DNA from: Flavobacteriales bacterium
Lineage (GTDB): Bacteria > Bacteroidota > Bacteroidia > Flavobacteriales_D > JAUILH01
Reading direction: 5' to 3'
Assembly (NCBI GenBank): GCA_964230215.1
Contig: CAXRGQ010000006.1
Coordinates: 174,106-238,105 of the forward strand
DNA length: 64,000 bases
The notes under the pieces are model-generated. The model saw only the letters and a list, made by a program, of their open reading frames with translations. It did not search any database and was not told where the DNA came from. Shown piece by piece: positions 23,734 through 42,322 of this stretch. Position numbers and translations under genes: made by a program. The number at the start of each line of letters is the position of its first letter. The stretch's first letter is position 1.

Positions 23734-23745
23734 GTGTAAGTGAAA

Positions 23746-24369: not shown

Positions 24370-24469
24370 AGTTAGTTCGTTAATTTGGTTATTAGCTTTA
24401 ATGAATAACCGTAACAATTGTTACATTAAATATACCGTGTTCGATACTGCGCTGTATTATTTTGCCAGC

Positions 24470-24775: not shown

Positions 24776-24911
24776 TCAATTGTGTTTTATGTGTTCTTAG
24801 TTCAATCTATGCTGGTGTTGTTATTCCCATGCACATTTATAGTATACAAAATAAAACTGTGAATATCAAGCCGAATGATGAGCTCAAGATTAGGTGATAT
24901 TCCTTTGTTAA

Positions 24912-25976: not shown

Positions 25977-26028
25977 GGGCTTGATTTCAGTTTACAATGT
26001 ATTGAACAATAACAGAAAAACTTAAAGC

Positions 26029-26508: not shown

Positions 26509-26553
26509 CCATTAATTGTTCTGACGTTTCTTCCTGCTACTAAAGATATACCT

Positions 26554-27360: not shown

Positions 27361-27393
27361 ATATTGTGATACAGATTAGGAGGGAAATCGTTC

Positions 27394-27511
27394 AAGGTAA
27401 TGGGCTAAAATGTGGTTGCCCCAAGGCTTTATTTTGTATAAAAAAAATTAAATTTCTGCTACATACTGGCATAGAGACCTGAGGGTGTATGCAATTATGG
27501 TGTTGTTGGCA
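27394..27511 (-). repeat. attC-like site A (decayed terminal copy of the ~127-bp family)
   Basis: Aligns to sites B, C and D (GGGC..TAAAATG..TGCCCCAAGG, GAGACCTGAGGGTGTATGCAATTATGGTGTTGTTGGC). The right box GTTGGCA is at 27505-27511. The left AAC box is lost. It starts 10 nt after the stop of ORF 27522..27827. Confidence 0.5.
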
Positions 27512-27521
27512 ATAATTACCT

Positions 27522-27827
27522 TTATCTACGTCTTGTTTTATTTTGTCTGTTTTTCTCTCGAATTTTCTCTTTCCTCTCAGCATCAGCAGCTTCTTTTTTA
27601 TATTCCTTATGCATCCAGCTTATGATAAATATGCAAATGATAAAAGGACATAATGTTATAAAGAAACCCCAAAATCGGTTCCGAGTGTGCTGAGCACTTC
27701 CCCATTCATCGTATTGTTTCAAGTCTTTTCCCCATGGTGTAGAATAAAAACCTGAATAAATACAATATAGGTAGTTTATAATAAAGTTACCTGCCAATAA
27801 AAACAACCATATTGTCGAGGATTTCAT
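27522..27827 (-). CDS. cassette ORF: small membrane protein, 101 aa, with a basic tail
   Basis: Three hydrophobic helices. The ATG lies 6 nt from the box of site B and the stop lies 10 nt from site A. Confidence 0.6.
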   Translation of the reverse strand: MKSSTIWLFLLAGNFIINYLYCIYSGFYSTPWGKDLKQYDEWGSAQHTRNRFWGFFITLCPFIICIFIISWMHKEYKKEAADAERKEKIREKNRQNKTRRR

Positions 27828-27833
27828 AATTGT

Positions 27834-27960
27834 TGCTAACGGGGCAGGGTAAAACGCGTGTGCCCCAACGTTTAGTTTATCTAATATACGTATTATTGTT
27901 TTGGGTACTCATTATTCGTTTGGAGACGTGTGGGCATATGCGATTTACCCGTTGTTGTGG
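27834..27960 (-). repeat. attC-like site B (127 bp)
   Basis: Plus strand reads TGCTAAC-GGGGCAGGGTAAAACGCGTGTGCCCC...GGGCATATGCGATTTACCC-GTT-GTTGTGG. The arms form a ~19-25 bp imperfect stem with a 3/6-nt unpaired spacer next to the AAC/GTT boxes. Confidence 0.65.
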
Positions 27961-28229
27961 TGCGTTTTTATTTTTTCTTCGATTAATTTCTTCGCTATTA
28001 TTAGACAATGTTCACGACTTCCAATAACCCCAATCGTTTCGGTTTCAATTTTATAAAGTCTGTCCGCAATTTCTTTCTCTGTTTTATTGTGAATTAGTAA
28101 GGAGAAAATTTCTGGCACGTAACTTTGATACTCATCTCTGGGTGCAAAGTCATTCACTCCAATCGGGTCCCATTCGTTCCATAGGATTTCGTCAACAGAA
28201 TTATATAATTTTTTTTGCTCGCTCGTCAT
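27945..28229 (-). CDS. cassette ORF, 94 aa hypothetical (WDPIGV...DEY motif, immunity-protein-like)
   Basis: Overlaps the upstream ORF by 4 nt. Its stop codon lies inside site B (GGGTAAATCGC). Confidence 0.55.
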   Translation of the reverse strand: MTSEQKKLYNSVDEILWNEWDPIGVNDFAPRDEYQSYVPEIFSLLIHNKTEKEIADRLYKIETETIGVIGSREHCLIIAKKLIEEKIKTHHNNG

Positions 28230-28513
28230 TCTTTGTCTTCTTGCGATACAAATGGATATTCGGAAAAATAGACATCCATACCAATCATTCCCATTGTTTT
28301 CATTGATGCGGCGTTCAATACTCCACCGCCACCGTTTGCGTCTTTCCTTATGTCAAATCCAATGTCAGCTATATATTTACTTGGCTTTAATGTTTTCCCT
28401 TTATCCATCAGCCAAGTTTCAAGAGCATCAATTTGTGTAGGTAAATCCCATGCTTCATCACATAGCCATTCCAATTTTTCTCCTGAGTCTTCGATATAAA
28501 TATTTATTGGCAT
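28226..28513 (-). CDS. cassette ORF, 95 aa hypothetical
   Basis: The ATG lies 20 nt from the CCACAAC box of site C. Translationally coupled to the next ORF. Confidence 0.55.
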   Translation of the reverse strand: MPINIYIEDSGEKLEWLCDEAWDLPTQIDALETWLMDKGKTLKPSKYIADIGFDIRKDANGGGGVLNAASMKTMGMIGMDVYFSEYPFVSQEDKE

Positions 28514-28533
28514 TTCTCGGTTCTTTTAATGCA

Positions 28534-28660
28534 CCACAACGGGGCAGGGTAAAACGCGTGCCCCAAAACGTTTTGTTTATCTAAAAATACAAAATATAAT
28601 TTCAGCTACTAATTATACGTCTGAAGACGCGAGGGGTATGCGATTTACCCGTTGTTAGGC
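28534..28660 (-). repeat. attC-like site C (127 bp) with a canonical GTTAGGC core
   Basis: Reads CCACAAC-GGGGCAGGGTAAAACGCGTG-CCCC...GGGGTATGCGATTTACCC-GTT-GTTAGGC. It shares 23-nt and 20-nt identical arm segments with site B. Confidence 0.7.
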
Positions 28661-28841
28661 TTAGTTACATAAAAATCATTAAATTCATTTCTTTTGAAAA
28701 ATTATCGGATTACTACAAAAAATAAAAGGTAAAACAAGCGTTTGGCAAGCCATAGTAATTGCGTTTTTTATTGGATGCGCAATTTGGGCTTATTGGCAAG
28801 AAAGGGAATTAAAGGAAAATCATGTATATTGTATAGGGACG

Positions 28842-29087
28842 GTGATAAAAAAGTGGAGAATGGTGAGTGGTAGACAAGTGCGGGTTAAATTTTATTATCG
28901 TGGAAAGTGGCGAACCGCCTCCGAAAATCAGGGGAATCATAAATTAGAAATAGGGGATAGAGTTTATGTGAAAATTAACCCGGAAAATGAATACACCCGA
29001 ATAATGCATGAGTATATTGCTTGCGATAGCCTAGAAACGGGACAACAGCCAACAGAAGGTTGGAAAGAAATACCATGCTTAAAATAA
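28842..29087 (+). CDS. hypothetical protein (DUF3592-like: TM helix plus beta domain); start unresolved, possibly frameshifted
   Basis: The frame is open from 28698 and encodes a TM helix (WQAIVIAFFIGCAIWAYW), but it has no ATG, GTG or TTG before 28842. A TTG at 28694 opens a 12-codon frame that would join after a 1-nt shift in an A-run. Confidence 0.4.
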   Translation: MIKKWRMVSGRQVRVKFYYRGKWRTASENQGNHKLEIGDRVYVKINPENEYTRIMHEYIACDSLETGQQPTEGWKEIPCLK

Positions 29088-29089
29088 TA

Positions 29090-29578
29090 CTACCTTACGT
29101 TTATAGCTATAAGCCAGGAAATAAGACCTGACAAAAGAATTGTAGTAATCGCAAATGCTATAGGATACCTTGTTGCTAGGTTATCGTTGAGATTTAGATT
29201 ATTAATTTCTTTATCAATTTGTTCCCTAACTAGAGGTGCTATTTCTTTCTGAAATTTTAGCGCATCAAATTCAAGTTGCTGCTTTTCCTTGTTTTCTTTT
29301 AATTCTTGCTGTAGCTTTTTAACATGCAATAAGTAACCACCAAAATCAACTATGTCAATACCATGTTGAGTTATATAAATTTCGTTTTGATGTCTAGGTG
29401 TACCTTTTATTATTAATCGATCACTTATCATTTCTGTAATTAATGCATTTTTCTCAATGTCATTCATATTAATATCACACGCTTCAAAAACTTTGAGATA
29501 ATGCTTTGCGTCTGCACAGTCACGTAAGTAATTAAGTATTGCGTCTATATTTTTATGTTTTGAGCTATTCTCGGTCAT
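29090..29578 (-). CDS. cassette ORF, 162 aa, coiled-coil protein with a C-terminal TM anchor
   Basis: I moved the start to MTENSSKHK (ATG 29576-29578), 8 nt inside the GCCTAAC box. The track's 29665 start would read across the recombination-site-like sequence. Confidence 0.55.
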   Translation of the reverse strand: MTENSSKHKNIDAILNYLRDCADAKHYLKVFEACDINMNDIEKNALITEMISDRLIIKGTPRHQNEIYITQHGIDIVDFGGYLLHVKKLQQELKENKEKQQLEFDALKFQKEIAPLVREQIDKEINNLNLNDNLATRYPIAFAITTILLSGLISWLIAINVR

Positions 29579-29586
29579 AGAATTAA

Positions 29587-29636
29587 GCCTAACTACGGGA
29601 TAAACCCAATTAACAAATAAATCTACATATAAATCC
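29587..29636 (-). other. attI-like half-site 1 (R box, L box and direct repeats)
   Basis: GCCTAAC (complement of site C's GTTAGGC), then TAC, then GGGATAAACCC. The motif ATAAAYC occurs three times (29600, 29617, 29629). No partner arm is present. Confidence 0.5.
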
Positions 29637-29685
29637 ATCAACAAGCAAAAAAGAACTAATAGCATGATTTACAAATACATATGTA

Positions 29686-29872
29686 TTTACAAACGACTGT
29701 AAACGTCATTTAAATACTTATCTACCGACTAGTACTTTTCAACTCCCCCATCTTTGCACCGTCGATTGAAACAAAGCCGGCTTGTGACAAAAGACACCGT
29801 GCCTAATGTGCAGATAACTAATAACGAAAACATACATACACATTAGGAAATGTTAAACCTTAATTTTTTAAA
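29686..29872 (+). promoter_or_regulatory. conserved ssb leader/promoter region, copy 1
   Basis: Near-identical in both copies. It has a CATCTTTG box (TAnnTTTG-like), the palindrome AAGCCGGCTT (29773-29782), and a 9-bp hairpin CCTAATGTG (29802-29810) / CACATTAGG (29839-29847). Confidence 0.45.
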
Positions 29873-30205
29873 ATGAACAACTTAAGAAACAAAGTACAGT
29901 TAATCGGGAATGCGGGAATGGAACCTGAAATTAAAGATGTAAACGGAAGTAAATTGGCTAAACTATCCATTGCTACCAACGAAACATACACCAACAAATC
30001 AGGTGAACGTGTTACAGACACACAATGGCACAACATTGTTGCCTGGGGAAAGACAGCCGAGTTAATTGAACGTTTCGTTACAAAAGGTAAAGAAATAGCG
30101 ATTGAAGGCAAACTAAACACTCGCTCATACGAAGATCAAGATGGTAATAAACGTTATGTGACGGAGATTATCATGAATGATTTCTTGCTGTTGGGTGCTA
30201 AGTAA
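29873..30205 (+). CDS. ssb: single-stranded DNA-binding protein, short form (110 aa, no acidic C-terminal tip)
   Basis: OB-fold SSB pattern: NKVQLIGNAG..PE...LAKLSIATNE...GERVTDTQWHNIVAWGKTAELIERFVTKGKEIAIEGKLNTRSYEDQDG.KRYVTEI. Confidence 0.85.
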   Translation: MNNLRNKVQLIGNAGMEPEIKDVNGSKLAKLSIATNETYTNKSGERVTDTQWHNIVAWGKTAELIERFVTKGKEIAIEGKLNTRSYEDQDGNKRYVTEIIMNDFLLLGAK

Positions 30206-30238
30206 ATGGAGTAGCCCATATTTTCTCTCATAAACTTA

Positions 30239-30273
30239 AGTCCTGTTCTGAAATTTTCGAAGCAGGACTTTTA
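30239..30273 (+). terminator. rho-independent terminator of ssb copy 1
   Basis: AGTCCTGTTCTG...AGCAGGACT followed by TTTT. The stem is homologous to the copy-2 terminator. Confidence 0.7.
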
Positions 30274-30280
30274 TTGCATA

Positions 30281-30853
30281 TTAAAAGTCTTTTAAAACTA
30301 AGCCTTTGCCAGTGTAATCAACTAATAATTGCTTACCCTTCAATCCCATCCTCTCTAATTCTTCATCTTCTGGCGCAAAATGATGATTTATATTTAGGTA
30401 GATTTCGTTCAGTCCATCTGCATCAAAATCATGAACTACAAAAGCCGGTAAGTATTCTCCTATTTCATTTGAATGCTGTATTTCCTCTGGATAAGGGAAG
30501 TCCGTATAAATAATTGGGAACTCAATACGCTGAGCAACTGTGGACAAGCCGACTTCAAGGTGATAGTATGCATGAGCGCCACCATTACTGATAAAACATA
30601 TTGTGTCTTTTATACCATCCTCATCAAGATCCCACAAATCTGTATATTCATAATGCAAAAGGTCCACTGCCAAAGTCGAATCGTACACATAATGTGCGTA
30701 TTGTGAATTTGGGAGGTCTACAAACTGACTATCTTCAATTGAGTGTGCCTTTACAGTTGACGAATCTATACTTTCATTGCTTGCATGAACTTCTGGTTTT
30801 TTCTCAGAATTACACGCGATTGCAATGACTAGTATAGGGATATATTTCTTCAT
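30281..30853 (-). CDS. lipoprotein, hypothetical (D-x-D-x-DG calcium-binding-like motifs)
   Basis: Lipobox VIAIAC. Contains DLDEDGIKD and DFDADGLNE. Confidence 0.5.
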   Translation of the reverse strand: MKKYIPILVIAIACNSEKKPEVHASNESIDSSTVKAHSIEDSQFVDLPNSQYAHYVYDSTLAVDLLHYEYTDLWDLDEDGIKDTICFISNGGAHAYYHLEVGLSTVAQRIEFPIIYTDFPYPEEIQHSNEIGEYLPAFVVHDFDADGLNEIYLNINHHFAPEDEELERMGLKGKQLLVDYTGKGLVLKDF

Positions 30854-30915
30854 ACTAATGACTTTACAAATATATCATCTCATCAAATAAATATTGATAA
30901 GGTCGGCCTAGAAAC

Positions 30916-31332
30916 TCAATTTAGCCGTCTAAAGCCAATTGTCTGATTGGTTGTTTTAAGTAAGAAGTGGTCATGATCAACAAAGTTTATTTGACCAAAA
31001 ATAAACGTGTCTTTTTTAGCGCTTGACACCGAGAAAGTAGTCAAAGTGCTATCACGTATCATCCATTCGTAATAGTGTGAACTATCAATTTCAATAGGTA
31101 CTAAGTAGTTCTGCTCAAATATACCGTCCTTATGAAAGCTGAATACATAGCCATCCATTTCTGAATAATCAATTGATAAAAATGTAAATCCTTCTTTAGG
31201 GATGCCCTCAAAATTATTCTCAACAGAAACTAGATTCCAGCTACCCACAATATCGTTTGTTACGTTTTTCGTATCCTCCAGTGATGAACAGGCAGCCATC
31301 AAAATAATTGCTATGTAAATAAAGCTTTTCAT
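30916..31332 (-). CDS. lipoprotein, hypothetical (lipocalin-like size)
   Basis: I prefer the start at MKSFIYIAIILMAAC (lipobox). This removes the overlap with hipA. Confidence 0.5.
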   Translation of the reverse strand: MKSFIYIAIILMAACSSLEDTKNVTNDIVGSWNLVSVENNFEGIPKEGFTFLSIDYSEMDGYVFSFHKDGIFEQNYLVPIEIDSSHYYEWMIRDSTLTTFSVSSAKKDTFIFGQINFVDHDHFLLKTTNQTIGFRRLN

Positions 31333-31339
31333 ATCTGGA

Positions 31340-32653
31340 TTATTTAAATCTAGGAGCAATTAAGGTGTTTAAAATCAAATCCCTTAGTTCTTGTGACACA
31401 TTTGTCTTCGTGGCGTACTCTCTCCAGTTACACACCACTGATTTAATCTCTTCAATTATCTTTTCGCCCTTTTTTATGCTGTTATCTGAGGCAATTTTAA
31501 TTAAGTCTGAAGTATTAATGTCCTTGTGTTTCCCACAAATACTTAGCGTATGCTGACTTACCCAAACGTTTTTTGGATCGTACGAATAGCAGACATCATA
31601 GGCTGGCGCCAACTCCCATTTTCCATGTTGTTTCAACATGAATGAAAAGTTCTTGGTGTGGTCGTCATAATTAGTCGCCATCACATTAAACACCATTCTT
31701 CTGAACATCTGCTCGGCCTCTGGATAGGTCATTCTTAACATCCGCATAGTCTGAAATAGCTGCTCATAACTGTAGCCGTATAGGTTGTTGTAGTCGAAAT
31801 GTTGAATGCCGCAGAATGTCTGAATATGATGCTTATCATTATTCCCCTCCCTATCAAAACGTTTGGTCATAAAATGTGCCCTATCATTCTCCTCTAACAA
31901 TTTACTTTCCATCATTTCAATGCCACAGTCTCTAGCCATCAAGTAATAGGCATACTCTACTCTTCCGTAACCAGAACTAACACCGAATTGCGTATCACTT
32001 ACACCATCAAGTTTAATTAACCAGTGTTCGAATCCTTTGGGGACATTGCTCTGACCAGACCTTACTTCACCCGTTTTTTGATTATAAGCGATTACAGCTT
32101 TTGGCCTAGCACCGCCTGCAGAAGTACCAATAGTGAGTATCTCACGCATTGCCTTTTGCTCATCTTTATGCAGGTTGGTTTCGAACTTCTCTCTGTTCGA
32201 CAACATTTTGTGTGCTATGTCTACTAAGCTTTTAATTTCGATAGCAAACGTTCTTTCTTTAGGTTTTATCTGTGCAGGCTCAAATTCCAAAGCACCCATT
32301 CCCCTTGAGCCAATGAAACAAAGTTGTTCGACAGGGTTCATACTATTCGGTGCGCGACCTTCTTGTGCTAACCAGATATTTATCAATTGATTTCCATATT
32401 TATCTGGCAGTGCATCTGCCAATAAACCCGGAAGCCCTTTGAAAGTGGATGTCTCTTCCCCTTTCTGTTTTCTCAATTCCGGAAAACTGTATATGCGGTC
32501 TCCATTACTTATAGGCATTTTTAATGGAGATAGGTCAATGTCCTTTGCAAGAAACTTTTTATCAAATTGAAAACTGGCTAGCTGACGATTTTCGTCCCAG
32601 CGAGCGGCACCTACGAGTTGTCCCCAAATTTTTATTTCTACTACATCTACCAT
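31340..32653 (-). CDS. hipA: HipA-family serine/threonine kinase toxin (type II TA)
   Basis: 437 aa. N-terminal HipA-coupling region and a C-terminal kinase core with GGARPK and DDHTKNFSF. Confidence 0.85.
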   Translation of the reverse strand: MVDVVEIKIWGQLVGAARWDENRQLASFQFDKKFLAKDIDLSPLKMPISNGDRIYSFPELRKQKGEETSTFKGLPGLLADALPDKYGNQLINIWLAQEGRAPNSMNPVEQLCFIGSRGMGALEFEPAQIKPKERTFAIEIKSLVDIAHKMLSNREKFETNLHKDEQKAMREILTIGTSAGGARPKAVIAYNQKTGEVRSGQSNVPKGFEHWLIKLDGVSDTQFGVSSGYGRVEYAYYLMARDCGIEMMESKLLEENDRAHFMTKRFDREGNNDKHHIQTFCGIQHFDYNNLYGYSYEQLFQTMRMLRMTYPEAEQMFRRMVFNVMATNYDDHTKNFSFMLKQHGKWELAPAYDVCYSYDPKNVWVSQHTLSICGKHKDINTSDLIKIASDNSIKKGEKIIEEIKSVVCNWREYATKTNVSQELRDLILNTLIAPRFK

Positions 32654-32994
32654 TCGGATGCCTCATTAGATGAATCGCCTTTGCTGCTAGCTCTACTTCT
32701 TTTGTTTTTCTGAAGTTTGGCATATTCAATTGGACTTATTTCATCATTAACTTTAAAAGCGTCCATTATAAACAGTAGGTCTAACACTCTTAACACTTGA
32801 ATCAGACTCATCAAGTTCACCTTTTCACCACGCTCTAAAAGACTCAGTGTAGAACGGCTAATATTTGCAGCTTCAGCCACTTCATTTTGAGATTTGTTCT
32901 GATTTAAGCGGTGATGTTGGACAAATTTCCCTATGGTTTCAACGAGCGATTTATCACTCATCGAATACCAATCAATGTATGAATTATCATTCAT
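32647..32994 (-). CDS. XRE-family HTH antitoxin (HipB-like)
   Basis: Overlaps hipA by 8 nt. HTH segment KSQNEVAEAANISRSTLSLLERGE. Confidence 0.75.
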   Translation of the reverse strand: MNDNSYIDWYSMSDKSLVETIGKFVQHHRLNQNKSQNEVAEAANISRSTLSLLERGEKVNLMSLIQVLRVLDLLFIMDAFKVNDEISPIEYAKLQKNKRSRASSKGDSSNEASEW

Positions 32995-33013
32995 ATTACG
33001 CTTTTTATATTAT

Positions 33014-33023
33014 TAACGCGTTA
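33014..33023. promoter_or_regulatory. candidate operator palindrome upstream of the hipB-like gene
   Basis: Perfect 10-bp palindrome TAACGCGTTA, 20 nt upstream of the start codon. Confidence 0.3.
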
Positions 33024-33170
33024 TATATCATTCAAATATACACATAAGATTTCAGACACACAACACTTGATGAATGATTTATCACTCACTAACTTCAAAT
33101 TAAAAGCCTAGTGAATTGTTTTTCATTCAAAACAAAGACACATATATCTTGTTTGAACAAAAATATACAA

Positions 33171-33542
33171 CTACCTATGCTGATCAATCAGAATAGCATT
33201 GCCATCAGGGTCTTTAAGCACTATGCTCGCTGGTCCGTTAGTGCTTTCGTCTGCTCTGCTGTCCAGTACTATTCCTTGTGACTCAAGGTGCTTTTGAATA
33301 TCTCTTACATCCTCAAACGGGTCTACGTTTTGTGCACTCTGGTCCCAGCCTGGGTTAAAAGTGAGAATATTGCCTTCAAACATGCCTTGGAAAAGACCTA
33401 TAACGGTTTCTCCGTTTTTCATTATCAGGTAGTTTTGTTCCATGTTGCCTGCAAACATTTCGAATCCCAATTTCTCATAGAATTCCTTTGATGTTTGTAA
33501 GTCTTTTACGCTTAGACTGATTGAGTGTGCTCCCAGTTTCAT
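33171..33542 (-). CDS. VOC (glyoxalase/bleomycin-resistance) family protein
   Basis: 123 aa. [20 protein letters not shown] and DPDGNAILI are typical of the VOC fold. Confidence 0.75.
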
Positions 33543-33606
33543 GTTTTGTTAGTTTGATTTGATTGCTTTTTTAATATTAATCTTGCTTAATGATATTTGA
33601 CAAATT

Positions 33607-34260
33607 CTAATCCCGCACAAAAAATGTCTTAGAGATAATTTCTTGATAACTGTTATTCCTTTTACCATTTAAACGAAAAACGATAATATCATTATCACCT
33701 GGTAATACCAGATAACATGATTTAACTCTGTCAAGGCCAATGCATCCTTCACATGTTAGTGTTACCTCAGTGAATTCAGGATCATAAGCAGTAAAGATTT
33801 TATTTTCTTCGCTTCTAATGAGGGTGTCGCTTTCAGATTCGTTATAAATTCTATTAAGCGATGAATCAGGTGCAGCATTATAAATAAAATATCTGGTAGA
33901 GACTAACTGTCTATGTCCTGTATTTAGCGTGAATTGTAATTGATATGGTTTTTTGATTTCGGTCTTATCTGAAAGTAATTTAAACGGAAGTTCTATTTGT
34001 CCCAATTCCTCACTTGGAATTAAGTGTGTGCCTATACCATACACTGTCCCATATATCCCAACAAGATTTGCGTTAATCGTATACTGGGCAGTACTATCAA
34101 AATCTGCTGAGTCAATAGCATATTCAAATCCAACCTTAAATTTATCAGGTAATACTTCATCATTATTAACGGGCTGAGAAATTACCTCTAAGTATCCCTG
34201 TGCTTCACATGGTATCGCTAAAGCAAATAAGATGGAGCTGGTTATTATAAATCGAAACAT
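33607..34260 (-). CDS. secreted hypothetical protein, 217 aa
   Basis: Signal peptide (LFALAIPCEAQ). Confidence 0.5.
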   Translation of the reverse strand: MFRFIITSSILFALAIPCEAQGYLEVISQPVNNDEVLPDKFKVGFEYAIDSADFDSTAQYTINANLVGIYGTVYGIGTHLIPSEELGQIELPFKLLSDKTEIKKPYQLQFTLNTGHRQLVSTRYFIYNAAPDSSLNRIYNESESDTLIRSEENKIFTAYDPEFTEVTLTCEGCIGLDRVKSCYLVLPGDNDIIVFRLNGKRNNSYQEIISKTFFVRD

Positions 34261-34463
34261 TCAATTTTTATTTAATTTATTGGACTACAAAATACATTAT
34301 TCTAACGTCTATTTCCACTCTTATTAGACGCCATCTTCTTCTGTATTGTATCATTAGCGGTATACTGCCAATGCTCTTTCAATTTAAGTAATAATTCTCT
34401 GGCGTCATAATAATCACAGTAAGCGGCTAAGGGAAACTTTTTACAGGAAATTATATTCTGTGC

Positions 34464-35003: not shown

Positions 35004-35085
35004 TTAAGTAAAGTGGTGCACATACAGGTATTTTATACGTTTTATGTTTAATAATTTAATATTTAGCACGTATCATATTCCTAAA

Positions 35086-35640: not shown

Positions 35641-35691
35641 TGTTATTGTTTTAGGTAAGAGAGTTTGGTTTTCGTGATGTAAATCTTATCC

Positions 35692-36225
35692 TTAACGCCT
35701 TTTCCTTTTAGAAATCTTTTTAGGTTTATATTCAACTATTTCAAATCCGAGTTTATCACTAAGCTCCTTGATTTTACTTTTGGCGGCAGATAATGAATCA
35801 GCTTGTTGTATTACAAACTTGCTTAAATGATTGTCATTAAGTAAAACGATTGTAAACACCTGGTCACTAAACTGGCTTGGCAATGCTCCTCTCATGTTCA
35901 TGTTATAAGCAACATTGGTACTGGTTATTGCCAAATACTTGTATGGGTTTAAGTCTCTCCATTTACCCCATTTTAACCCAAGTGATGAAGAGAATTTGCG
36001 CAATTTCTTTTTCTCTAAGTCAATTTCAACGCCTTCATATGAGCTCAGAATAAATGCACCCGCTATAAAAGCTACAATACCTGCGATTGGTCTTGCAGAA
36101 GGACTAACCGCTATTTCTACTTTATCAGGTGTGGAGATTAATACAATACCAAATATTATAAGCAAAACAGCAACTACAATGAACATCACTGGGAAAGTCA
36201 AGCCGAAATTTTCTTTTATTCTCAT
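35692..36225 (-). CDS. membrane protein, hypothetical
   Basis: I prefer the start at MRIKENFG. Two TM helices, a soluble domain and a basic tail. Confidence 0.45.
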   Translation of the reverse strand: MRIKENFGLTFPVMFIVVAVLLIIFGIVLISTPDKVEIAVSPSARPIAGIVAFIAGAFILSSYEGVEIDLEKKKLRKFSSSLGLKWGKWRDLNPYKYLAITSTNVAYNMNMRGALPSQFSDQVFTIVLLNDNHLSKFVIQQADSLSAAKSKIKELSDKLGFEIVEYKPKKISKRKRR

Positions 36226-36281
36226 AATGATTTTCAAACAAGCCAAGTGGCATTGATTAAGAATGAATTATATCCGTTTTT

Positions 36282-36566
36282 TTAGTTACCACAGTTTTCT
36301 TGAGCTTTCAGGTATTCTTTCTCCGCCAGATCTTCAAGTTCTTGAATCTCATTTTCCTTCATCCCAGATTCTTTCGCATCTTCAATCACTTCTAGAATTC
36401 TATTCTCAGCTTCTACCATGCCCTGCTCATCCCTTTCGCACCAAGCTTGACCTTTATCCATTGCATATTCCTTAATTAGCTCTTTCGGTTTCTTGGAGTT
36501 ACATGAGGATATGACAATTCCTCCTGTAACAATTAATGCTTGTATTAATCTTAAACTGAATATCAT
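36282..36566 (-). CDS. small acidic lipoprotein
   Basis: I moved the start to MIFSLRLIQALIVTGGIVISSC (lipobox), 9 nt from site D. The track's N-terminal extension reads into the repeat. Confidence 0.5.
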   Translation of the reverse strand: MIFSLRLIQALIVTGGIVISSCNSKKPKELIKEYAMDKGQAWCERDEQGMVEAENRILEVIEDAKESGMKENEIQELEDLAEKEYLKAQENCGN

Positions 36567-36575
36567 ATTAAACAA

Positions 36576-36708
36576 TACTAACGGGGCAGGATATAGCGGA
36601 TGCCCCACAGGTTTAGTTTATCTAATATACGGATTATTATTTCGGGTAATTATTGTCTGTTTGGAGACCTAAGGGCACATGCAGTTTAATCATTGCTGCA
36701 TGTTAGTC
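36576..36708 (-). repeat. attC-like site D (133 bp, same family as B and C)
   Basis: TACTAAC-GGGGCAGGATATAGCGGATGCCCC. The central GTTTAGTTTATCTAATATAC...GTTTGGAGAC is shared with B. The site ends ...GGGCACATGCAGTTTAATCATTGCTGCAT-GTTAGTC. The hepT stop codon TAA sits inside the GACTAAC box. Confidence 0.65.
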
Positions 36709-37044
36709 ATCTAGAAACTTCTTTACTTCAGGTAATAACTTAGGCAGGTCTTTGGTTACAATGGCCCAAATTATTGCATCCGAAATTGTGTCATAACCAT
36801 GTATTATTCTATTTCTTGTATCCACAATTTTTCGTGCGTTTTCAATTGGGAAATCACTTTGGAGTTTTAGAATTCGATTTACTGCTTCTCCTATAATTTC
36901 AAGACTTCTCTCAATTGCTCGCTTAGTCTTTAAATCATTCTGGAATTCAAAATAATTCCTTTTTTCTGGCAGGAATGAGTTAATCTCTAGTATGGCGTCA
37001 TGAATATCAATTAACCAAACTTTAATTTCTTTCTCCATACACAA
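36703..37044 (-). CDS. hepT: HepT (DUF86) ribonuclease toxin
   Basis: R-x4-H-x-Y motif (RNRIIHGY). 113 aa. Overlaps mntA. Confidence 0.8.
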   Translation of the reverse strand: MCMEKEIKVWLIDIHDAILEINSFLPEKRNYFEFQNDLKTKRAIERSLEIIGEAVNRILKLQSDFPIENARKIVDTRNRIIHGYDTISDAIIWAIVTKDLPKLLPEVKKFLDD

Positions 37045-37330
37045 GAACTTTTGATTTATCTATTTCAGATTTTAAAAGCTGATTTCTGATAGCTCCATCC
37101 TCTAATAGATCAATCTTTCTATTAAGAAGTTTTTCCAGTTGGAATTTCAGATTAAAGTATTTTTCCGAATAAGAAATGGGATCACTATCCTCAATGGATA
37201 CAATAAGATCAATGTCGCTTTCGTCATTAAATCTATCAGTTGTTACTGAACCAAAAGCGAATAATGTAGACACCCTATTACTAGAGCATAACTCCTTAAT
37301 TTGGGCAATATATTTATCCAAATATGCCAT
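37022..37330 (-). CDS. mntA: MntA nucleotidyltransferase antitoxin
   Basis: GSVTTDRFNDESDIDLIV (GS...DxD). I moved the start to MAYLDKYIAQ. The track's extension to 37447 reads through site E. Confidence 0.75.
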   Translation of the reverse strand: MAYLDKYIAQIKELCSSNRVSTLFAFGSVTTDRFNDESDIDLIVSIEDSDPISYSEKYFNLKFQLEKLLNRKIDLLEDGAIRNQLLKSEIDKSKVLVYGERN

Positions 37331-37388
37331 CCTCATCCAAAGATACGAATAGTAAGGTAAAGTAGTTTCAGTCCTATTGGTTAATGTG

Positions 37389-37455
37389 ATGCAACGGTCC
37401 GTGTATGTTGTCGTAGCATCCCAAAGGGTGCTATGCAATATACACATTGTTGTGT
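37389..37455 (-). repeat. attC-like site E (67-bp short hairpin type)
   Basis: ATGCAAC-GGTCC-GTGTAT-GT-TG-TCG-TAGCA [loop TCCCAAAGGG] TGCTA-TG-CA-AT-ATACAC-ATT-GTTGTGT. It is an imperfect palindrome with bulges and AAC/GTT ends. Confidence 0.6.
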
Positions 37456-37584
37456 TTTCGTGCTTTATTTAATTCTTTTTCAGCGGTGGTAAAGCCATAC
37501 TCTTTTACAATTTTTGGTTATAGCGTTGGCTGGTGCGAATTGCAAATGTGTATGGTTTTAAGCGTTGGGTTGATTTCTGAGTGT

Positions 37585-37610
37585 TACTTATAGTCTTTGA
37601 TTTATAGTCC
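37585..37610 (+). promoter_or_regulatory. tandem C-boxes (controller-protein operator)
   Basis: TACTTATAGTC-TTTGA-TTTATAGTC matches the GACTnnnAGTC x2 architecture of R-M controller operators. It lies ~23 nt upstream of the C-gene start. Confidence 0.6.
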
Positions 37611-37632
37611 ACATTTCCTCAAATTTGCAACT

Positions 37633-37869
37633 GTGGAAATAAAATCAAAAATAGGAGCTCGGATCAAAGAATTGAGGGATGATAAGCAAATGTCTCAAAA
37701 AGATTTAGCTTATGCTTCTGATTTAGACCGCAGTTACATTGCAAGTGTTGAAAATGGTCAAAGAAATATATCAATTGTCAATATTGAAAAAATTGCTGTT
37801 GCACTTGGAGTTACATTAAAAGATTTTTTTAGGAATGACAAATTTGATAACGATACAACAAGCAGTTGA
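37633..37869 (+). CDS. R-M controller (C) protein, XRE-family HTH
   Basis: HTH segment MSQKDLAYASDLDRSYIASVENGQRNIS. I prefer GTG 37633 (78 aa, close to the C-boxes). Overlaps the next gene by 35 nt. Confidence 0.7.
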   Translation: MEIKSKIGARIKELRDDKQMSQKDLAYASDLDRSYIASVENGQRNISIVNIEKIAVALGVTLKDFFRNDKFDNDTTSS

Positions 37870-38644
37870 TGGATTTAAAGAACTTATAGAAACTTCAATT
37901 GTTGAAGGTGGAATTAAAGCAAAAGAAGCAATTATTAGGTCATCACGACCAATTAACTTTATTCACGAGGCTGTCAAAGCCGATTTTATTAGAAAAAGAA
38001 TTTCTCCTGATAGAATCCATCCACCTCTTGGAGAATCAAAACCTGAACTTAAATTAGCTGGTTTTATTAAACAGAAACATCAAGATGTTTGCGTTGCACC
38101 TGAAGGATATGTTCCAGAATCTGAAACAATGACTGAAGGGATTTTAAGAGAAGCAACTGATTATTATGGTAAAGATTATACAGAACGTACAATTTCTGTA
38201 AACATTAGAAGTCAAATGAGTTCTCTTGCTAAAAACTTTGACACACTTTATGAAAGAACTATTGCCGAAGCTCAAAACCTGCACGTTAGATGTCAGAAAA
38301 TGGTGCTTGGAGAAGTTTATATGATTCCTGTAAAAGAATATGATGCGTCTGTAATGGATGAAAAAAGAGTTGAATTTATTGACCGAATAGGCGCAGTTGA
38401 GAAATATATCAAATCATTCCAAGCAATTAACGGAAGACCTAATCATGAACGAGAAGATTACAAGTATGAACGAGTTTGCTTGCTGCTTGTAGACTTTCAA
38501 CAAGCACCTGCAAAGATTTATAGTACAAATCAGGAACTTTATGATGATGGACTTTTAGATGAAGCTTCCGATGCCAGTATCGAAGAGCTTTCTTGGGAAA
38601 CATTTACGGATTCTATTCTAAATTCATATAAGAATAGATTCTAA
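37835..38644 (+). CDS. putative restriction endonuclease subunit 1 (269 aa)
   Basis: Lies between the C gene and the methyltransferase. Paralog of the next ORF. Shared blocks: AGFIK.K.QD, GKDYTE, VN(I/V)RSQMSS, RC.KMVLGE, EDYKYER.CL.L.DF. Confidence 0.55.
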   Translation: MTNLITIQQAVDGFKELIETSIVEGGIKAKEAIIRSSRPINFIHEAVKADFIRKRISPDRIHPPLGESKPELKLAGFIKQKHQDVCVAPEGYVPESETMTEGILREATDYYGKDYTERTISVNIRSQMSSLAKNFDTLYERTIAEAQNLHVRCQKMVLGEVYMIPVKEYDASVMDEKRVEFIDRIGAVEKYIKSFQAINGRPNHEREDYKYERVCLLLVDFQQAPAKIYSTNQELYDDGLLDEASDASIEELSWETFTDSILNSYKNRF

Positions 38645-39597
38645 TGGCTAAAAGCAAAATTTTAAGTAAAAGAAAATCTGCTCAACTCGAGAGAGTTAAG
38701 GCTACCGCCCATCATAATATCGTTAATGCAACACCACAAAATATATTGCAGGTTGCTTGCGATAATTTCAAATTTGTATTTGAACAAGCAGTTAGAATTG
38801 GAGGTGTTAAAGGAAAACAAAGTTTAACGACTTCAAGCAAGCACATTAACTTGTTTCATGAGGTGGTGAAATCAGAATTAATACGTAATGGAGTTAGAGC
38901 AGATTTGGTTTTTCCATCACAATATAATTCTACTGGTGAAATAAATTTTGCAGGATTTATTAAAGCAAAAAAGCAAGATATTTCGGCAGTTCCATCAGCT
39001 TTCATCAATAATGAAACCCCTGAAACCATAACAGTTGGTATGATGACAGGGGAAACAGACCCATTTGGGAAAGATTATACTGAAAATTCTCTTGTTGTAA
39101 ATGTGCGAAGTCAAATGAGTAGTATTGGGAAGAACAACGATACTATTGTGGAAAGAGCTTTTGCTGAAACTCTTAATCTTCATATGAGATGTCCGAAAAT
39201 GGTATTAGGTGAATTTTTTATTCTTCCAATAACTGGTTTTAACATGGATGAAGTGAAAAAACATAACCCAGCTTATGAAAGCATAATTACTACAAAAGTT
39301 AATAGTAGAAGTAAAACAACCGCTGAATCAATTGAGAAAACGATTAATACCTATGCTTCTATAAACAACAGAAACATTAGTAATGGCGAAGATTATAAAT
39401 ACGAGAGATTGTGTTTAATCTTGGCAGATTTTAGTCAAAGCCCAGTAAAAATATATAGAAATGATGCTGATTTAATTTCGGATAACTTGTTACCACCAAA
39501 CACTACAGCAACTTTAAATGGTTTAGGTTATGATAGTTTTATTTCAGATTTACTGGCTATTTATTCGACAAGGTTTGGTACAGGTAAGTTTAGTTGA
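38644..39597 (+). CDS. putative restriction endonuclease subunit 2 (317 aa, paralog)
   Basis: Its ATG overlaps the subunit-1 stop. Roughly 35-40% identity to subunit 1 by eye. Confidence 0.55.
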   Translation: MAKSKILSKRKSAQLERVKATAHHNIVNATPQNILQVACDNFKFVFEQAVRIGGVKGKQSLTTSSKHINLFHEVVKSELIRNGVRADLVFPSQYNSTGEINFAGFIKAKKQDISAVPSAFINNETPETITVGMMTGETDPFGKDYTENSLVVNVRSQMSSIGKNNDTIVERAFAETLNLHMRCPKMVLGEFFILPITGFNMDEVKKHNPAYESIITTKVNSRSKTTAESIEKTINTYASINNRNISNGEDYKYERLCLILADFSQSPVKIYRNDADLISDNLLPPNTTATLNGLGYDSFISDLLAIYSTRFGTGKFS

Positions 39598-41438
39598 TAT
39601 TTTTCAACTAAAAATTCGTCAATCTCTATTTTGTCATTAAGACTTTTTAGTAGCTCAATTTCATTTTGAGTGAAATTTGGAATACTAAACTTTTCAATGA
39701 AGTTCTTTTGATAGCAAGGGAAACCGCCTTGAATAGAAACACTCGTGTTACTTACATAATAGTCCATTACAATAGAGTTCAATATTTTTTGAACAACCAA
39801 AATATTTTCTTCTTTTGACATTGGATGAGTTACATCATCAAATAACATTGCCTTATTTGAATGATCTCTATCAAAATAAATTCCGTAACCGTTTGTATAA
39901 TAAGCATCTTCCTCTTGCACAAATAAAAATCTTGGGTGTTTACTAAATGTTGGATTCAATAATTTTTTACCAAATCTTGTAATTCCTTGTGTTCTTCCCC
40001 AGGCATAAAATGGAGTAAATATTTTTTTTCCTTTTCCTCTTCCTTCTAATTTCTCCTTTTCAGAAAGAAGGTATTCGTAGCATTTCGGATATATTATTTT
40101 GAATTCATCCTCCAAAATTGGAACTGCATTTTTCGAGTCTGTTTGATAAGGAGTAATAATTCTTAAAGTGTTGTTTTCAATATCTTTTTGATTTTTAAAT
40201 TGAGATATTTTGTAAACTGGTTTTGTGATTTCTTTTTCTATTAAAAATGTTCCGTTTTCTGTGCTTTTAGTTAGATAACCATTTTTTTGGTTTGCAGAAT
40301 CTATAAAAAAGACTTCATCTTTTAAGGTTGCAATTCCAACAGCAATATTGAATAATTGTTTTATTGGAGTTCCAATATTTTCAATGATTTTGATATTTTC
40401 TTGTTCTTGGGTTTTAAGTAAACGCCATTTATTTACATTGAGGTTTTCTAGATAGTTTGGCGAACCATTTGCAGATATTAAAAAGTTTGCACAAGTCTGT
40501 TCATCTTTGATTTTATCGAATAGAATAGAATCGTTTTTCTTCTTGTCCAAGAATGTAATTGCGGTATAAGTTTGAGCGTCAAAAACCTTTTTATGCCTAA
40601 AATCTACAATTCGTGTAACGCATTTATTTTGCAGAAAATATTGACGAAGCGATAAACCTGCCAGTGATGTAAAGTAATTGTTTGGCGTTATATAGCCTAG
40701 CTTTCCTTCTTTTTCTAAAAGTTTATGCCCCAATTCAAAAAAAGCAAAATATAAATTGAAAGTTCCGTTTTCAATACTTTTCCAATTGTTTATTAAATAA
40801 TGCCTGTTTTCATCACTTAAATCTTGAAACTTGACATATGGTGGATTCCCAACAATAATTTCAAATTTAGTTGACCAATCAGCTTTTAAGCTATCTTGAT
40901 TGAAGATATTAAAGTCAGATTCTTCTATTATCTCATTTTTTAGAAGTCCATAGAGTGATAAAATTATTTTTGAGCGTTTTACATTGTAGTCCAATATATC
41001 AGATCCATAAATATTTTCTCGGATAGTTGCCTTGATACTTTTATTAAAAGTCTTTTGGTAATATTCAGCCAAGCCAATTAAAAATGCCCCACAACCACAG
41101 CTTGGGTCTAAGCATTTGTCATTTTCTTTTGGTGATACTTCATTGATAATAAAATCAACAACGTATGTTGGTGTAAAAAATGCTCCATTAACTTTTCTGT
41201 CGTTTTTAGGAATTAAAAGTTCAAGATAATTCTCTAATAGTTTTAAATCCTTAATCTCAAGAGTTGAAACAAGTAAGTAGATTTCAGACTCTGGTTTAAA
41301 GTCCATTAATATTTCCGAAATTATTGGACTTTTTGTTGAAGCTAAATCATTGTTTTGAAGAAAAGAATAAATGAGATGTTTCTCAACAAGGTTAATCTCG
41401 TGAGAGTTAAGTAATTCATTTATTACACTTTTTTTCAT
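39561..41438 (-). CDS. N6-adenine DNA methyltransferase (Eco57I/TaqI-like gamma class), 625 aa
   Basis: Motif I LDPSCGCGAFL, motif IV VGNPPYV, and a long C-terminal target-recognition region. Convergent with the nuclease genes. Confidence 0.8.
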   Translation of the reverse strand: MKKSVINELLNSHEINLVEKHLIYSFLQNNDLASTKSPIISEILMDFKPESEIYLLVSTLEIKDLKLLENYLELLIPKNDRKVNGAFFTPTYVVDFIINEVSPKENDKCLDPSCGCGAFLIGLAEYYQKTFNKSIKATIRENIYGSDILDYNVKRSKIILSLYGLLKNEIIEESDFNIFNQDSLKADWSTKFEIIVGNPPYVKFQDLSDENRHYLINNWKSIENGTFNLYFAFFELGHKLLEKEGKLGYITPNNYFTSLAGLSLRQYFLQNKCVTRIVDFRHKKVFDAQTYTAITFLDKKKNDSILFDKIKDEQTCANFLISANGSPNYLENLNVNKWRLLKTQEQENIKIIENIGTPIKQLFNIAVGIATLKDEVFFIDSANQKNGYLTKSTENGTFLIEKEITKPVYKISQFKNQKDIENNTLRIITPYQTDSKNAVPILEDEFKIIYPKCYEYLLSEKEKLEGRGKGKKIFTPFYAWGRTQGITRFGKKLLNPTFSKHPRFLFVQEEDAYYTNGYGIYFDRDHSNKAMLFDDVTHPMSKEENILVVQKILNSIVMDYYVSNTSVSIQGGFPCYQKNFIEKFSIPNFTQNEIELLKSLNDKIEIDEFLVEKYQLNLPVPNLVE

Positions 41439-41601
41439 TCTTCTTTCTGTTGACTATAAGTAACAAAATTATGGTTTTTATCCGAGCTATCCAAATTGTA
41501 GAGTTGGGAAAATTTTAGCTCTTTTGGTTTTTTCAGCATTGGGAAAGATCGTGGGCAAAAACCAAATGTGCTAAATGTGCGGCTGGATTTTTTTGCATGA
41601 A

Positions 41602-41651
41602 ACACAACTACTGGGATAAACCCAATTACCACATAAATCTAATCAAAATCC
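41602..41651 (-). other. attI-like half-site 2
   Basis: ACACAAC (complement of site E's GTTGTGT), then TACT, then GGGATAAACCC. ATAAACC is at 41616, ATAAATC at 41633 and CAAAATC at 41644. The first ~33 nt are ~90% identical to half-site 1. Confidence 0.5.
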
Positions 41652-41700
41652 TATCAAGACACAAAATTCATTAAAAATCTATCTTTCAATAATATATCCA

Positions 41701-41888
41701 TTTACAAACGACTGTAAACGTCATTTAAATACTTATCTACCGACTAGTACTTTTCCACTCCCCCATCTTTGCACCGTCGATTGAAACAAAGCCGGCTTGT
41801 GACAAAAGACACTGTGCCTAATGTGCAGAATATTAATAACGAAAACATACATACACATTAGGAAATGTTAAACATTAATTTTTATAAA
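41701..41888 (+). promoter_or_regulatory. conserved ssb leader/promoter region, copy 2
   Basis: Same elements as copy 1. The hairpin is CCTAATGTG (41817-41825) / CACATTAGG (41854-41862), and the substitutions between copies fall in its loop. Confidence 0.45.
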
Positions 41889-42221
41889 ATGAACAACTTA
41901 AGAAACAAAGTACAGTTAATCGGGAATGCGGGAATGGAACCTGAAATTAAAGATGTAAACGGAAGTAAATTGGCTAAACTATCCATTGCTACCAACGAAA
42001 CCTACACCAACAAATCAGGTGAACGTGTTACAGACACACAATGGCACAACATTGTTGCCTGGGGAAAGACAGCCGAATTAATCGAACGTTTCGTAACTAA
42101 AGGCAAAGAAATGGCTATTGAAGGTAAACTAAACACTCGCTCATACGAAGATCAAGATGGTAAGAAACGTTATGTGACGGAAATTATCATGAACGATTTC
42201 TTGCTGTTGGGTGCTAAGTAA
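41889..42221 (+). CDS. ssb: single-stranded DNA-binding protein, short form (110 aa), second copy
   Basis: Start set by alignment with copy 1 (MNNLRNK). Only two aa differ (I>M, N>K) against ~12 nt differences. Confidence 0.85.
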   Translation: MNNLRNKVQLIGNAGMEPEIKDVNGSKLAKLSIATNETYTNKSGERVTDTQWHNIVAWGKTAELIERFVTKGKEMAIEGKLNTRSYEDQDGKKRYVTEIIMNDFLLLGAK

Positions 42222-42286
42222 TTAGCCCAAACTGTTAATACTTTGTTGATATTCAGCACAGTAATAAATAACAATTCTTTAATTCA

Positions 42287-42322
42287 AGTCCTGTTCTGTA
42301 TTATCAGAGCAGGACTTTTTTT
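42287..42322 (+). terminator. rho-independent terminator of ssb copy 2
   Basis: 12-bp stem AGTCCTGTTCTG / CAGAGCAGGACT followed by TTTTTTT. Confidence 0.8.

Follow-up and report, generated by a model that had tools for sequence, protein, structure and literature searches.

Two integron-type cassette arrays with attI-like sites in a variable island of a flavobacterial genome

The window considered here, that is, the whole stretch of DNA analysed, comprises 64 kb of a Flavobacteriales genome. A sequence-only reading had placed in it, at 27394-42322, an integron-like cassette locus with five imperfect palindromes and two half-sites, each half-site next to a copy of ssb. The question raised is whether these sites are those of an integron and, if so, what served them. 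In blastn comparisons with L063, L064 and L066, homology on the left extends to 22906 and on the right begins at 41591. The stretch 22907-41590 is a variable island of 18.7 kb between core genes, upstream of the chromosomal ssb gene. In L063 all of it is replaced by ~550 bp with one different cassette.

The five palindromic sites, read on the minus strand, are real. Sites B (27834-27960), C (28534-28660) and D (36576-36708) belong to one imperfect-palindrome family of ~127-131 nt, identified by repeat search and by a covariance model (R1) built from the three, which matches them at 27832-27962 (145 bits), 28532-28662 (136 bits) and 36574-36703 (128 bits), respectively. Site A (27394-27511), the last of array 1, belongs to this 127-nt family in a weak, decayed form (R1 match 27393-27507, 26.2 bits, E ~1e-3). 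Site E (37389-37455) forms a hairpin of a different type, shorter at ~65 nt; a similar short type is present at 2866-2996 in L027. The AAC...GTT boxes read as originally given, and the hepT stop codon (36703-36705) does lie inside GACTAAC. A 19-nt family motif has 3 exact copies in the window vs 0.04 expected, and, over the 64 kb, motif counts and the covariance model place the 127-nt family in the island only. In the covariance-model alignment 85% of cells are paired vs 32-47% with partners slid, and 11 pairs are changed on both sides, figures that derive from a small set in a model-fitted alignment including a reverse-strand self-hit of B.

Across four loci, the bottom strand gives the better fold in 18 of 19 attC sites; its G.T pairs are A.C mismatches on the top strand. 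The values are -19.7 to -22.0 kcal/mol for the bottom (+) strand of B vs -16.2 for the top, and -14.5 kcal/mol for the bottom (+) strand of E vs -10.7 to -11.3. B and C are still well formed, with intact stems. In site D, the last of array 2, the R'' arm is rearranged, and the computed fold of the site does not contain the long stem. The attC sites lack classic single extrahelical bases; instead, their two spacers differ in length by 3 nt, the longer one being on the R'/L' side. No T-run follows the hairpins.

Crossover at G|TT would leave each cassette with complementary ends. The ends were read from GTT as inverted complements, with 30 non-cognate combinations as control (median 6 matches, maximum 10). 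The A-B cassette (27522-27827, minus strand) contains just one ORF, of 101 aa and without known function, and its ends, GTTAGCAACAATTATG / GTTGGCAATAATTACC, match at 12/16 by eye. The B-C cassette (27945-28513, minus strand; 12/16) holds two overlapping small ORFs of 95 and 94 aa in a toxin-antitoxin-like arrangement, neither with a family match. In the first cassette of array 1 (28661-29593, minus strand), the R'' flank of C, GCCTAAC plus an extension, is complementary to the junction at half-site H1 (13/16). This cassette carries a 191-aa ORF (29090-29665), which as called begins inside the half-site and has an internal ATG at 29578, and an opposite ORF of 75-81 aa (28842-29087); both are without family match. 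The first cassette of array 2 (37456-41608, minus strand) matches between E and half-site H2 at 13/14 with one indel. It is a type II restriction-modification module consisting of a C-protein HTH gene (37597-37869, plus strand), two REase paralogues (37835-38644 and 38644-39597, plus strand; PADLOC REase_II 1e-83 and 6e-61) and an MTase (39561-41438, minus strand; PADLOC MTase_II 5e-135). The D-E cassette (36703-37447, minus strand) encodes an MNT nucleotidyltransferase / HepT toxin-antitoxin pair (Pfam PF01934 3e-22, PF18765 1e-13), and its ends match weakly, ~9/16 at best. The inverted complementarity claimed for the boxes flanking a cassette thus holds for 4/5 cassettes starting at G|TT (12-13 matches) and poorly for D-E. 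No partner was found for the outer flanks of A and D.

The restriction-modification module recurs in an Allomuricauda-like genome, 87% identical and with boundaries within ~20 nt of the cassette ends; its proteins are at least 90% identical in other genera. Cargo of this kind (restriction-modification, MNT/HepT, small ORFs of unknown function) is typical of chromosomal integrons. The stretch 30281-36608 (minus strand; Pfam) holds ten further genes with cassette-like cargo: two unknown ORFs, hipA-hipB, a glyoxalase, a 217-aa ORF, a YcxB-like gene, an SPFH/Band 7 gene and two more unknowns. L061 also has the glyoxalase gene and the one for the 217-aa product (89%). Neither intergenic folding nor a generic AAC...GTT hairpin scan found an attC-like site in 30283-36576, which makes up 6.3 kb of array 2. 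The span claimed, 27394-42322, is therefore not one continuous array.

Half-sites H1 (29587-29636) and H2 (41602-41651), both on the minus strand, have their crossover AAC at 29591-29593 (G|TT on the minus strand) and 41606-41608, respectively. Their positions were given correctly, and of the three ATAAAYC repeats assigned to each, all are present in H1 (29600-06, 29617-23, 29629-35); the third in H2 is degenerate (CAAAATC). Alignment of five attI junctions shows AAC|TAC(N)GGGATAAACCC, which includes the GGGATAAACCC box, to be common to H1, H2 and the orthologous L063 site, and homology among the three starts exactly at AAC. Each is joined exactly there to a different, unrelated first cassette. 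Cassette polymorphism exactly at G|TT, for which a search in related strains had been suggested, is thus found in a relative. The precise joins, together with a divergence of only 4-7% among orthologous and paralogous attI copies, require that site-specific events took place later than both the duplication and the split from L063. The sample consists of near-identical strains and one polymorphic relative, so that recent activity rests on few junctions. The core GTTTAT(N5-6)GTT and nearby repeats are shared by the half-sites and the integrase-adjacent attI of L027, L067 and L075. By these comparisons both half-sites behave as attI sites (attI-1 and attI-2).

No recombinase was detected in the 64-kb window by Pfam matches of the called genes or by Pfam scans of 24.9-44.5 kb. 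A tblastn search of the window with four cognate-family integrases and an approximate IntI1 sequence gave a best, spurious E of 0.2. Together these searches confirm the absence of a recombinase ORF first noted by inspection. No integrase occurs in the ~2 kb of left flank sampled (L053) or in the L063 contig, and the ~13-50 nt between attI and the ssb leader hold no integrase pseudogene remnant (tblastn). In L027, a Bacteroidia MAG, the same attC family (96.5 bits) lies 3.4 kb downstream of a gene for a 292-aa tyrosine recombinase, the stop codon of which is ~40 nt from attI (GTTTATAACCA|GTT); the cassette ends match this attI. L067 has the same layout, with an integrase 61% identical. In Tenacibaculum salmonis (L075) the homologue is 395 aa long, attI reads TATATAACCA|GTT, and the ends of six cassettes match at 11-13/16. 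The order in all three is integrase, attI, co-oriented array. These integrases score 195-235 bits, in two stretches, against the integron integrase family TIGR02249, below its cutoff of 265. Their best family matches are TIGR02249 and XerA, their best PDB matches XerA and VchIntIA, and in alignment they lack the IntI-specific insertion. On sequence grounds, the matching recombinase in the relatives is a cousin of integron integrases without their defining domain. IntI is reported to need the insertion for activity (Messier & Roy 2001, via PMC8352920; PMC8138268), so that recombination of folded attC by the cognate integrases is putative.

The attC / attI / cassette logic of integrons holds. 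The data show the site family, the complementary cassette ends, three independent attI junctions, the link to an integrase in relatives and the strand bias of folding; chemistry, service in trans and activity at present are inferred. The locus probably comprises two attI-bearing, CALIN-like arrays of a flavobacterial integron-like lineage, which either are served in trans or became orphans recently; no published description of a lineage of this kind was found. Service of a CALIN in trans, one of the two options first offered, thus stays viable. Two tandem integron-type arrays lie inside the 18.7-kb island, each headed by an attI-like site in which 3-4 nt separate a GTTTATC box from the crossover and ATAAAYC repeats stand upstream. 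Promoterless minus-strand cassettes follow attI, each ending in an attC hairpin. A tyrosine recombinase that cuts at G|TT would have inserted and removed cassettes, most probably on the folded attC bottom strand, as in integrons. Judged by the relatives, it would be IntI/XerA-like without the IntI-specific insertion and normally encoded immediately upstream of attI, oriented as the cassettes. As attI is here uncoupled from an integrase, the arrays would be served in trans, now or until recently. They are partly decaying, A and D being degenerate and no attC following D, and the ~690-bp attI-ssb module was duplicated in this lineage.

The same decay would fit a fossil array, in which a complete integron-like element once present lost its integrase and left inert relics that change by deletion and homologous exchange. 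The sole L063 cassette, with its attC truncated by deletion into a core gene, and the lack of an integrase in the window, the sampled flank and the L063 contig agree with this. Precise joining of three first cassettes to little-diverged attI copies, the intact stems of B and C and the missing integrase remnant beside the ssb leader speak against it, and we regard it as possible but doubtful. It is unlikely that the half-site is a fortuitous attG-type secondary target, at which cassettes from an integron elsewhere were inserted outside att sites. One preprint describes how integrases insert cassettes at genomic GTT sites (bioRxiv 10.1101/2022.09.11.507474), and part of the half-site region (CCAATTACCACA) belongs to the native sequence upstream of ssb and is found in L061 too. 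Against this reading, the same nucleotide was used at least three times, and the core and repeats recur in integrase-adjacent attI.

The ssb genes had been taken as a platform, or a non-canonical partner in the position of intI. The attI-leader-ssb-terminator module is present as a paralogous copy (~29591-30290, plus strand; ssb1 CDS 29873-30205, Pfam SSB 1e-29) and an orthologous, ancestral copy (~41606-42330, plus strand; ssb2 CDS 41889-42221, or from 41865), with 78-96% identity by segment. Duplication of the whole module, each copy heading an array, and an unusually conserved ssb 5' leader (48 invariant nt) are what would be expected if SSB controlled attC hairpins or recruited a non-canonical recombinase. 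The product, however, is an ordinary short flavobacterial SSB of 110 aa, 68-73% identical to those of Aequorivita, Ulvibacter and others. To our knowledge, SSB has no recombinase chemistry. The gene ssb2 is followed by NUDIX and further core genes in a synteny kept in all relatives; nucleotide identity from the ssb2 module into NUDIX is 86-87% for both L061 and L063, and 99.99% for L060. L061 has the same ssb, with only a diverged stretch at the half-site position (CAAC|TATAG, then unrelated sequence) and no recognisable half-site or attC. In L027, L067 and L075 the half-site does recur, next to the integrase, and no SSB gene is among the called genes of the stretches examined. Under the refuting condition first set, that other occurrences of the repeat family lack an ssb-adjacent half-site, the proposed link to ssb fails: ssb is simply a conserved neighbour of attI, and a partner role is very improbable. 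That the palindromes are REP/MITE-like repeats or terminators unrelated to gene mobility, as their intergenic, hairpin-forming position downstream of ORFs might suggest, can practically be dismissed, given end complementarity specific to cognate pairs, junction polymorphism at attI, the occurrence of the family, over the 64 kb, in the island only, its presence in the integrase-headed L027 array and hairpins without T-run.

The two arrays resemble integrons and CALINs in their promoterless cassettes ending in imperfect palindromes with AAC/GTT boxes, the G|TT crossover, the homogeneous long attCs, the toxin-antitoxin and restriction-modification cargo and the lack of a nearby integrase. They differ in keeping an attI-like head, not required by the definition of CALINs, in attCs without classic extrahelical bases and in a cognate integrase, known from relatives, without the IntI additional domain. 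Xer recombinases (XerA, XerC/D) act on one dif site per chromosome and are hijacked by elements with ssDNA hairpins, for instance CTX phage. XerA and IntI score equally well with the cognate integrases, whose substrate is probably single-stranded and folded; in contrast to the single dif site, there are here arrays of cassettes with attI, and in L027, L067 and L075 the recombinase gene adjoins attI. In Treponema-type 'inverted-integrase' chromosomal integrons the integrase is co-oriented with the cassettes. The integrase of L027, L067 and L075 likewise points toward attI and the cassettes, but integrases of the Treponema type (PMC3607928) carry the IntI insertion, which the flavobacterial ones lack in alignment, and the window has no integrase at all. 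In the host phylum, IntegronFinder had found next to nothing: In0 alone in 2016, and in 2022 a single complete integron (PMC9024848). The attC x attG route (bioRxiv 10.1101/2022.09.11.507474; PMC12901181) shares with this locus cassettes away from an integrase and a half-site join at GTT, whereas the half-site here has been reused and resembles the bona fide attI of the same lineage.

Minus-strand ORFs between 27.4 and 41.7 kb of the window (G+C content 37.7%) are separated by imperfect palindromes. Three of these, B (27832-27962), C (28532-28662) and D (36574-36703), belong to one family by repeat search and score 128-145 bits with a covariance model built from the same three sites. Site A (27393-27507, 26 bits) is a decayed member of this family and E (37389-37455), at about 65 nt, is a hairpin of another kind; all five are read on the minus strand. 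The lengths (127-133 nt for B, C and D) lie within the 57-141 nt of attC sites, and the R'' (..AAC) and R' (GTT..) boxes are legible directly at the sites. The family motif occurs in three exact copies in the window, versus 0.04 expected by chance. In the family alignment 85% of cells are paired, versus 32-47% with the partners slid, and changes on both sides occur in 11 pairs; these figures come from a small set in a model-fitted alignment, one entry of which is a reverse-strand self-hit of B. No attC family is among the Rfam gathering-threshold matches in the window, the sole match being a tRNA gene (52104-52177, minus strand).

Folding and inspection by eye found one A.A mismatch and G.T pairs in the L stem, no single-base bulges and none of the classic extrahelical bases. 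On the R'/L' side the R and L boxes are separated by a spacer of 6 nt, 3 nt more than on the other side. The bottom strand is the more stable fold in 18 of the 19 attC sites of the window and of three related loci (L027, L067 and L075), because G.T pairs there turn into A.C mismatches on the other strand. This preference would fit recombination of the folded bottom strand, and the spacer asymmetry without extrahelical bases would be compatible with an enzyme that has no I2 helix.

Read outward from GTT, one end of a cassette is the inverted complement of its other end: 12/16 positions match for A-B and for B-C, 13/16 between C and half-site H1 (29587-29636), and 13/14 with one indel between E and half-site H2 (41602-41651). 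The match of D-E is weak. Thirty non-cognate combinations of ends matched at a median of 6 positions of 16 and never at more than 10. Complementary ends at a G|TT crossover are present in four of the five window cassettes, and in an array of Tenacibaculum salmonis (L075) at 11-13/16 for the ends of six cassettes. The palindrome-punctuated cassette locus of the sequence-only reading was confirmed in its site family and in its cassette-end complementarity. When the outer flanks of A and D were searched for inverted-complement partners, no match came up, and neither intergenic folding nor a duplex-based AAC...GTT hairpin scan gave an attC-like hairpin between 30283 and 36576; the locus therefore consists of two short arrays, H1-C-B-A and H2-E-D, the second followed by genes without sites.

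The attI motif is GGGATAAACCC, and in the window GGGATAAACCCAATTA occurs twice, once per array head. The attI of the window, GGGTTTATCCC-GTA|GTT, resembles in its core the attI of L027, of L067 and of L075. A relative represented by four loci (L063, L064, L066 and L069), with flanks 87-93% identical to the window, also has this site in front of its ssb. Homology of the left core to L063 stops at 22906 and right homology restarts at 41591. Between these ends L063 holds one unrelated 107-aa cassette with a complementary R'' box at its far end, the hairpin of which has gone through a deletion into a core gene. At H1 (CCTAAC|), H2 (CACAAC|) and L063 (GCCAAC|) all sequence to the right of AAC is common and none to the left, three different cassettes being joined at the same AAC; the cassette-boundary polymorphism anticipated for relatives is thereby observed, and the comparison places the island at 22907-41590. 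From these sequence comparisons the half-sites are identified as attI-like sites that have been used repeatedly.

At the island's left edge lies a 352-aa gene (22675-23733), which in L063 (8507-8698) is cut to 63 aa by the same deletion that took the attC hairpin of that locus's only cassette. Within the attI region (29594-29665 and 41609-41632) lie the starts of two called ORFs, 29090-29665 and 41435-41632, whose frames extend over the crossover into the first cassette; this may reflect an attI-encoded translation start. Bacteroidota promoters differ from sigma-70-type promoters. An apparently different first cassette in locus L059 was rejected as an inverted-repeat artefact: positions 1-130 of this contig end (assembly GCA_964216795.1) are an inverted duplication of the adjoining cassette sequence, produced in assembly.

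The cargo, typical of chromosomal integrons, comprises an MNT/HepT pair, two genes laid out like a toxin-antitoxin system, small unknown ORFs, and a type II R-M module in which a C protein accompanies two REase paralogues. The MTase of the R-M cassette is at least 90% identical to Allomuricauda and Lutibacter proteins. An Allomuricauda-like contig (L070) carries the same R-M module at 87% nucleotide identity; the homology starts some 18 nt inside G|TT and ends shortly beyond the R'' box of E. No hairpin and no integrase were found within 10 kb of the L070 module, and the stretch upstream of it was rejected as an attC, its fold not being that of such a site. The attC-less stretch that follows D, up to ssb1 (30281-36608), encodes HipBA, a glyoxalase, YcxB-like and SPFH proteins and several unknown genes.

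The glyoxalase gene and a 217-aa gene of this stretch are also present in a related organism (L061, 89%), at the same position relative to ssb. Terminal cassettes or modules that end in an R'' box, with no hairpin after it, were seen in L027 (about 1598), L063 (about 8745) and L070 (about 13950), and may represent a recurrent mode of array ending or decay. A short AAC...GTT hairpin at 24855-24909 (arm duplex -15 to -16 kcal/mol), directly after the stop codon of a 354-aa Reg_prop gene, could be a 55-nt attC-like site further along the H1 array, or just a terminator.

Recorded Pfam hits, our own Pfam scans of 24.9-44.5 kb and tblastn with five integrase probes all agree with the earlier observation that the 64 kb contain no recombinase, and specifically no tyrosine recombinase. 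The best tblastn match (probe P0122 to 41626-41447, E 0.2) was spurious and was rejected; it has no catalytic motifs and lies mostly within a cassette. Among the best 120 homologues of the L027 integrase none is on the window's own contig, and an integrase may be encoded elsewhere in the MAG.

A pattern scan of species-representative genomes, a collection that does not include the source genome, gave 47 matches. Eleven Bacteroidota-type loci were tested with the covariance model, and one, in the Bacteroidia MAG L027, was a true relative of the attC family (2074-2204, 96.5 bits); the remaining matches are single ones in unrelated taxa, including 12 at contig ends of one Massilia assembly. The L027 site lies inside an integrase-headed array. 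Its 292-aa tyrosine recombinase (5664-6542) is directed toward the array, and about 40 nt separate its stop codon from ...GATAAACGCTATATTTATATCGTTTATAACCA|GTTGGCG. The first cassette has the complementary GTTGGCGG box at its far end and is followed by two attCs, a B-type and an E-type one.

The only close homologue of this integrase among the best 120 (L067, 61% identity) has the same layout, with attI GTTTATAACCA|GTTGTGA and a co-oriented array with several attC types. A large flavobacterial family of about 390 aa is more distant, at about 50% identity (3456 matches at E<=1e-30). One member, a 395-aa IntI/XerA-like integrase of T. salmonis (GCA_041053065.1), belongs to the L075 stretch 8001-14124 and is followed by TATATAACCA|GTTGTAT and then by at least six cassettes with attCs of about 133 nt. 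A scan of viral contigs with the integrase alignment found only Xer-like proteins (<=43% identity).

One array of L067 has three copies (9433-9560, 11256-11385 and 12740-12866) of a GC-rich cassette with no ORF, about 125 nt long and essentially attC plus boxes. The L075 array contains an IS30-like transposase gene, and an OLD-family nuclease gene lies just past the last attC found. T. salmonis has been cultured and would allow the system to be tested.

Two rival explanations of the locus were weighed. One, REP or MITE repeats, implies dispersed copies without cassette logic: within the window the family is confined to the island, and its one true relative among the 47 pattern matches in the species-representative genomes is itself in an array.

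The other gives ssb the part of partner or platform of the system, as had been proposed from its place beside both half-sites. The product is an ordinary flavobacterial SSB of 110 aa. The gene beside H2 (41889-42221, or from 41865) is orthologous in relatives: synteny and 86-87% identity extend into NUDIX and further in L061 and L063, and identity is 99.99% in L060. L061 has this ssb but no attC, and where the half-site would be it has only diverged sequence; no SSB gene is among the called genes of the L027, L067 and L075 stretches examined, though attI is present. Linkage of ssb and half-site does not recur wherever the system occurs. Copy 1 (29591-30290), which contains the ssb beside H1 (29873-30205), is a paralogue of the attI-leader-ssb-terminator unit, specific to this lineage; it has derived substitutions in common with copy 2, its homology ends just after the terminator, and no site-like structure was found at its right junction. 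The ssb association looks like a positional coincidence, and the proposal of ssb as a partner is not supported.

Within the ssb 5' leader (29747-29860, 41762-41876, L061 and L063; 86-89% identity overall), 48 nt (CATCTTTGCACCGTCGATTGAAACAAAGCCGGCTTGTGACAAAAGACA) do not vary between the four sequences and are followed by a conserved 9-bp hairpin (CCTAATGTG/CACATTAGG). The leader has no Rfam match at the gathering threshold and is a candidate regulatory leader for ssb. A metagenome scan with an invariant 36-mer of the leader found one contig, of the same type as L063.

Provided that the sites are attC, the locus is a CALIN, with at least two close attC (A, B and C within 1.3 kb; D and E within 0.9 kb) and no integron integrase within a few kb, or indeed in the 64 kb. 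The integron or CALIN reading is supported, and the recombinase type found in relatives sharpens it; the locus also points to an apparently undescribed flavobacterial integron lineage.

Among NCBIfam models the integrases of L027, L067 and L075 best match archaeal XerA and the integron integrase TIGR02249, the latter at 195-235 bits in two stretches, under the 265 cutoff. Of the solved structures, XerA scores highest (136 bits), followed by VchIntIA (125 bits, in two stretches); XerD is behind both. The IntI-specific insertion is not present: gaps of 16, 16 and 10 residues relative to an IntI1 sequence fall exactly at its position. In the literature this insertion serves to define IntI and is described as necessary (PMC8352920). 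A classical integron, with an intI carrying that additional domain beside attI, was not found in the window or in these loci.

Taken jointly, the data suggest a tentative reading, possible rather than probable: an undescribed integron branch, apparently widespread in Flavobacteriia/Bacteroidia, would use an insertion-less IntI/XerA-like integrase co-oriented with the array, in some members with an N-terminal extension of about 100 aa; attC spacer asymmetry and G.T-biased stems, not extrahelical bases, would set the choice of the bottom strand; and here attI would be uncoupled from the integrase, duplicated with ssb and still served in trans. An attI working in two copies without a cis integrase would bear on the spread and persistence of cassette arrays.

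A literature search found no published link of Flavobacteriaceae to cassette arrays. For Bacteroidetes, the finds of IntegronFinder surveys were limited to In0 in 2016 and to a single complete integron in 2022 (PMC9024848). Surveys report next to no integrons in Bacteroidota, and in practice IntI is identified through the additional domain. If insertion-less IntI relatives build such arrays, current detection pipelines would miss a whole lineage of cassette systems, or label it as CALIN, and the missed lineage would fall in abundant marine and gut phyla. It would also be a natural counter-example to the rule that attC recombination needs the I2 helix and extrahelical bases.
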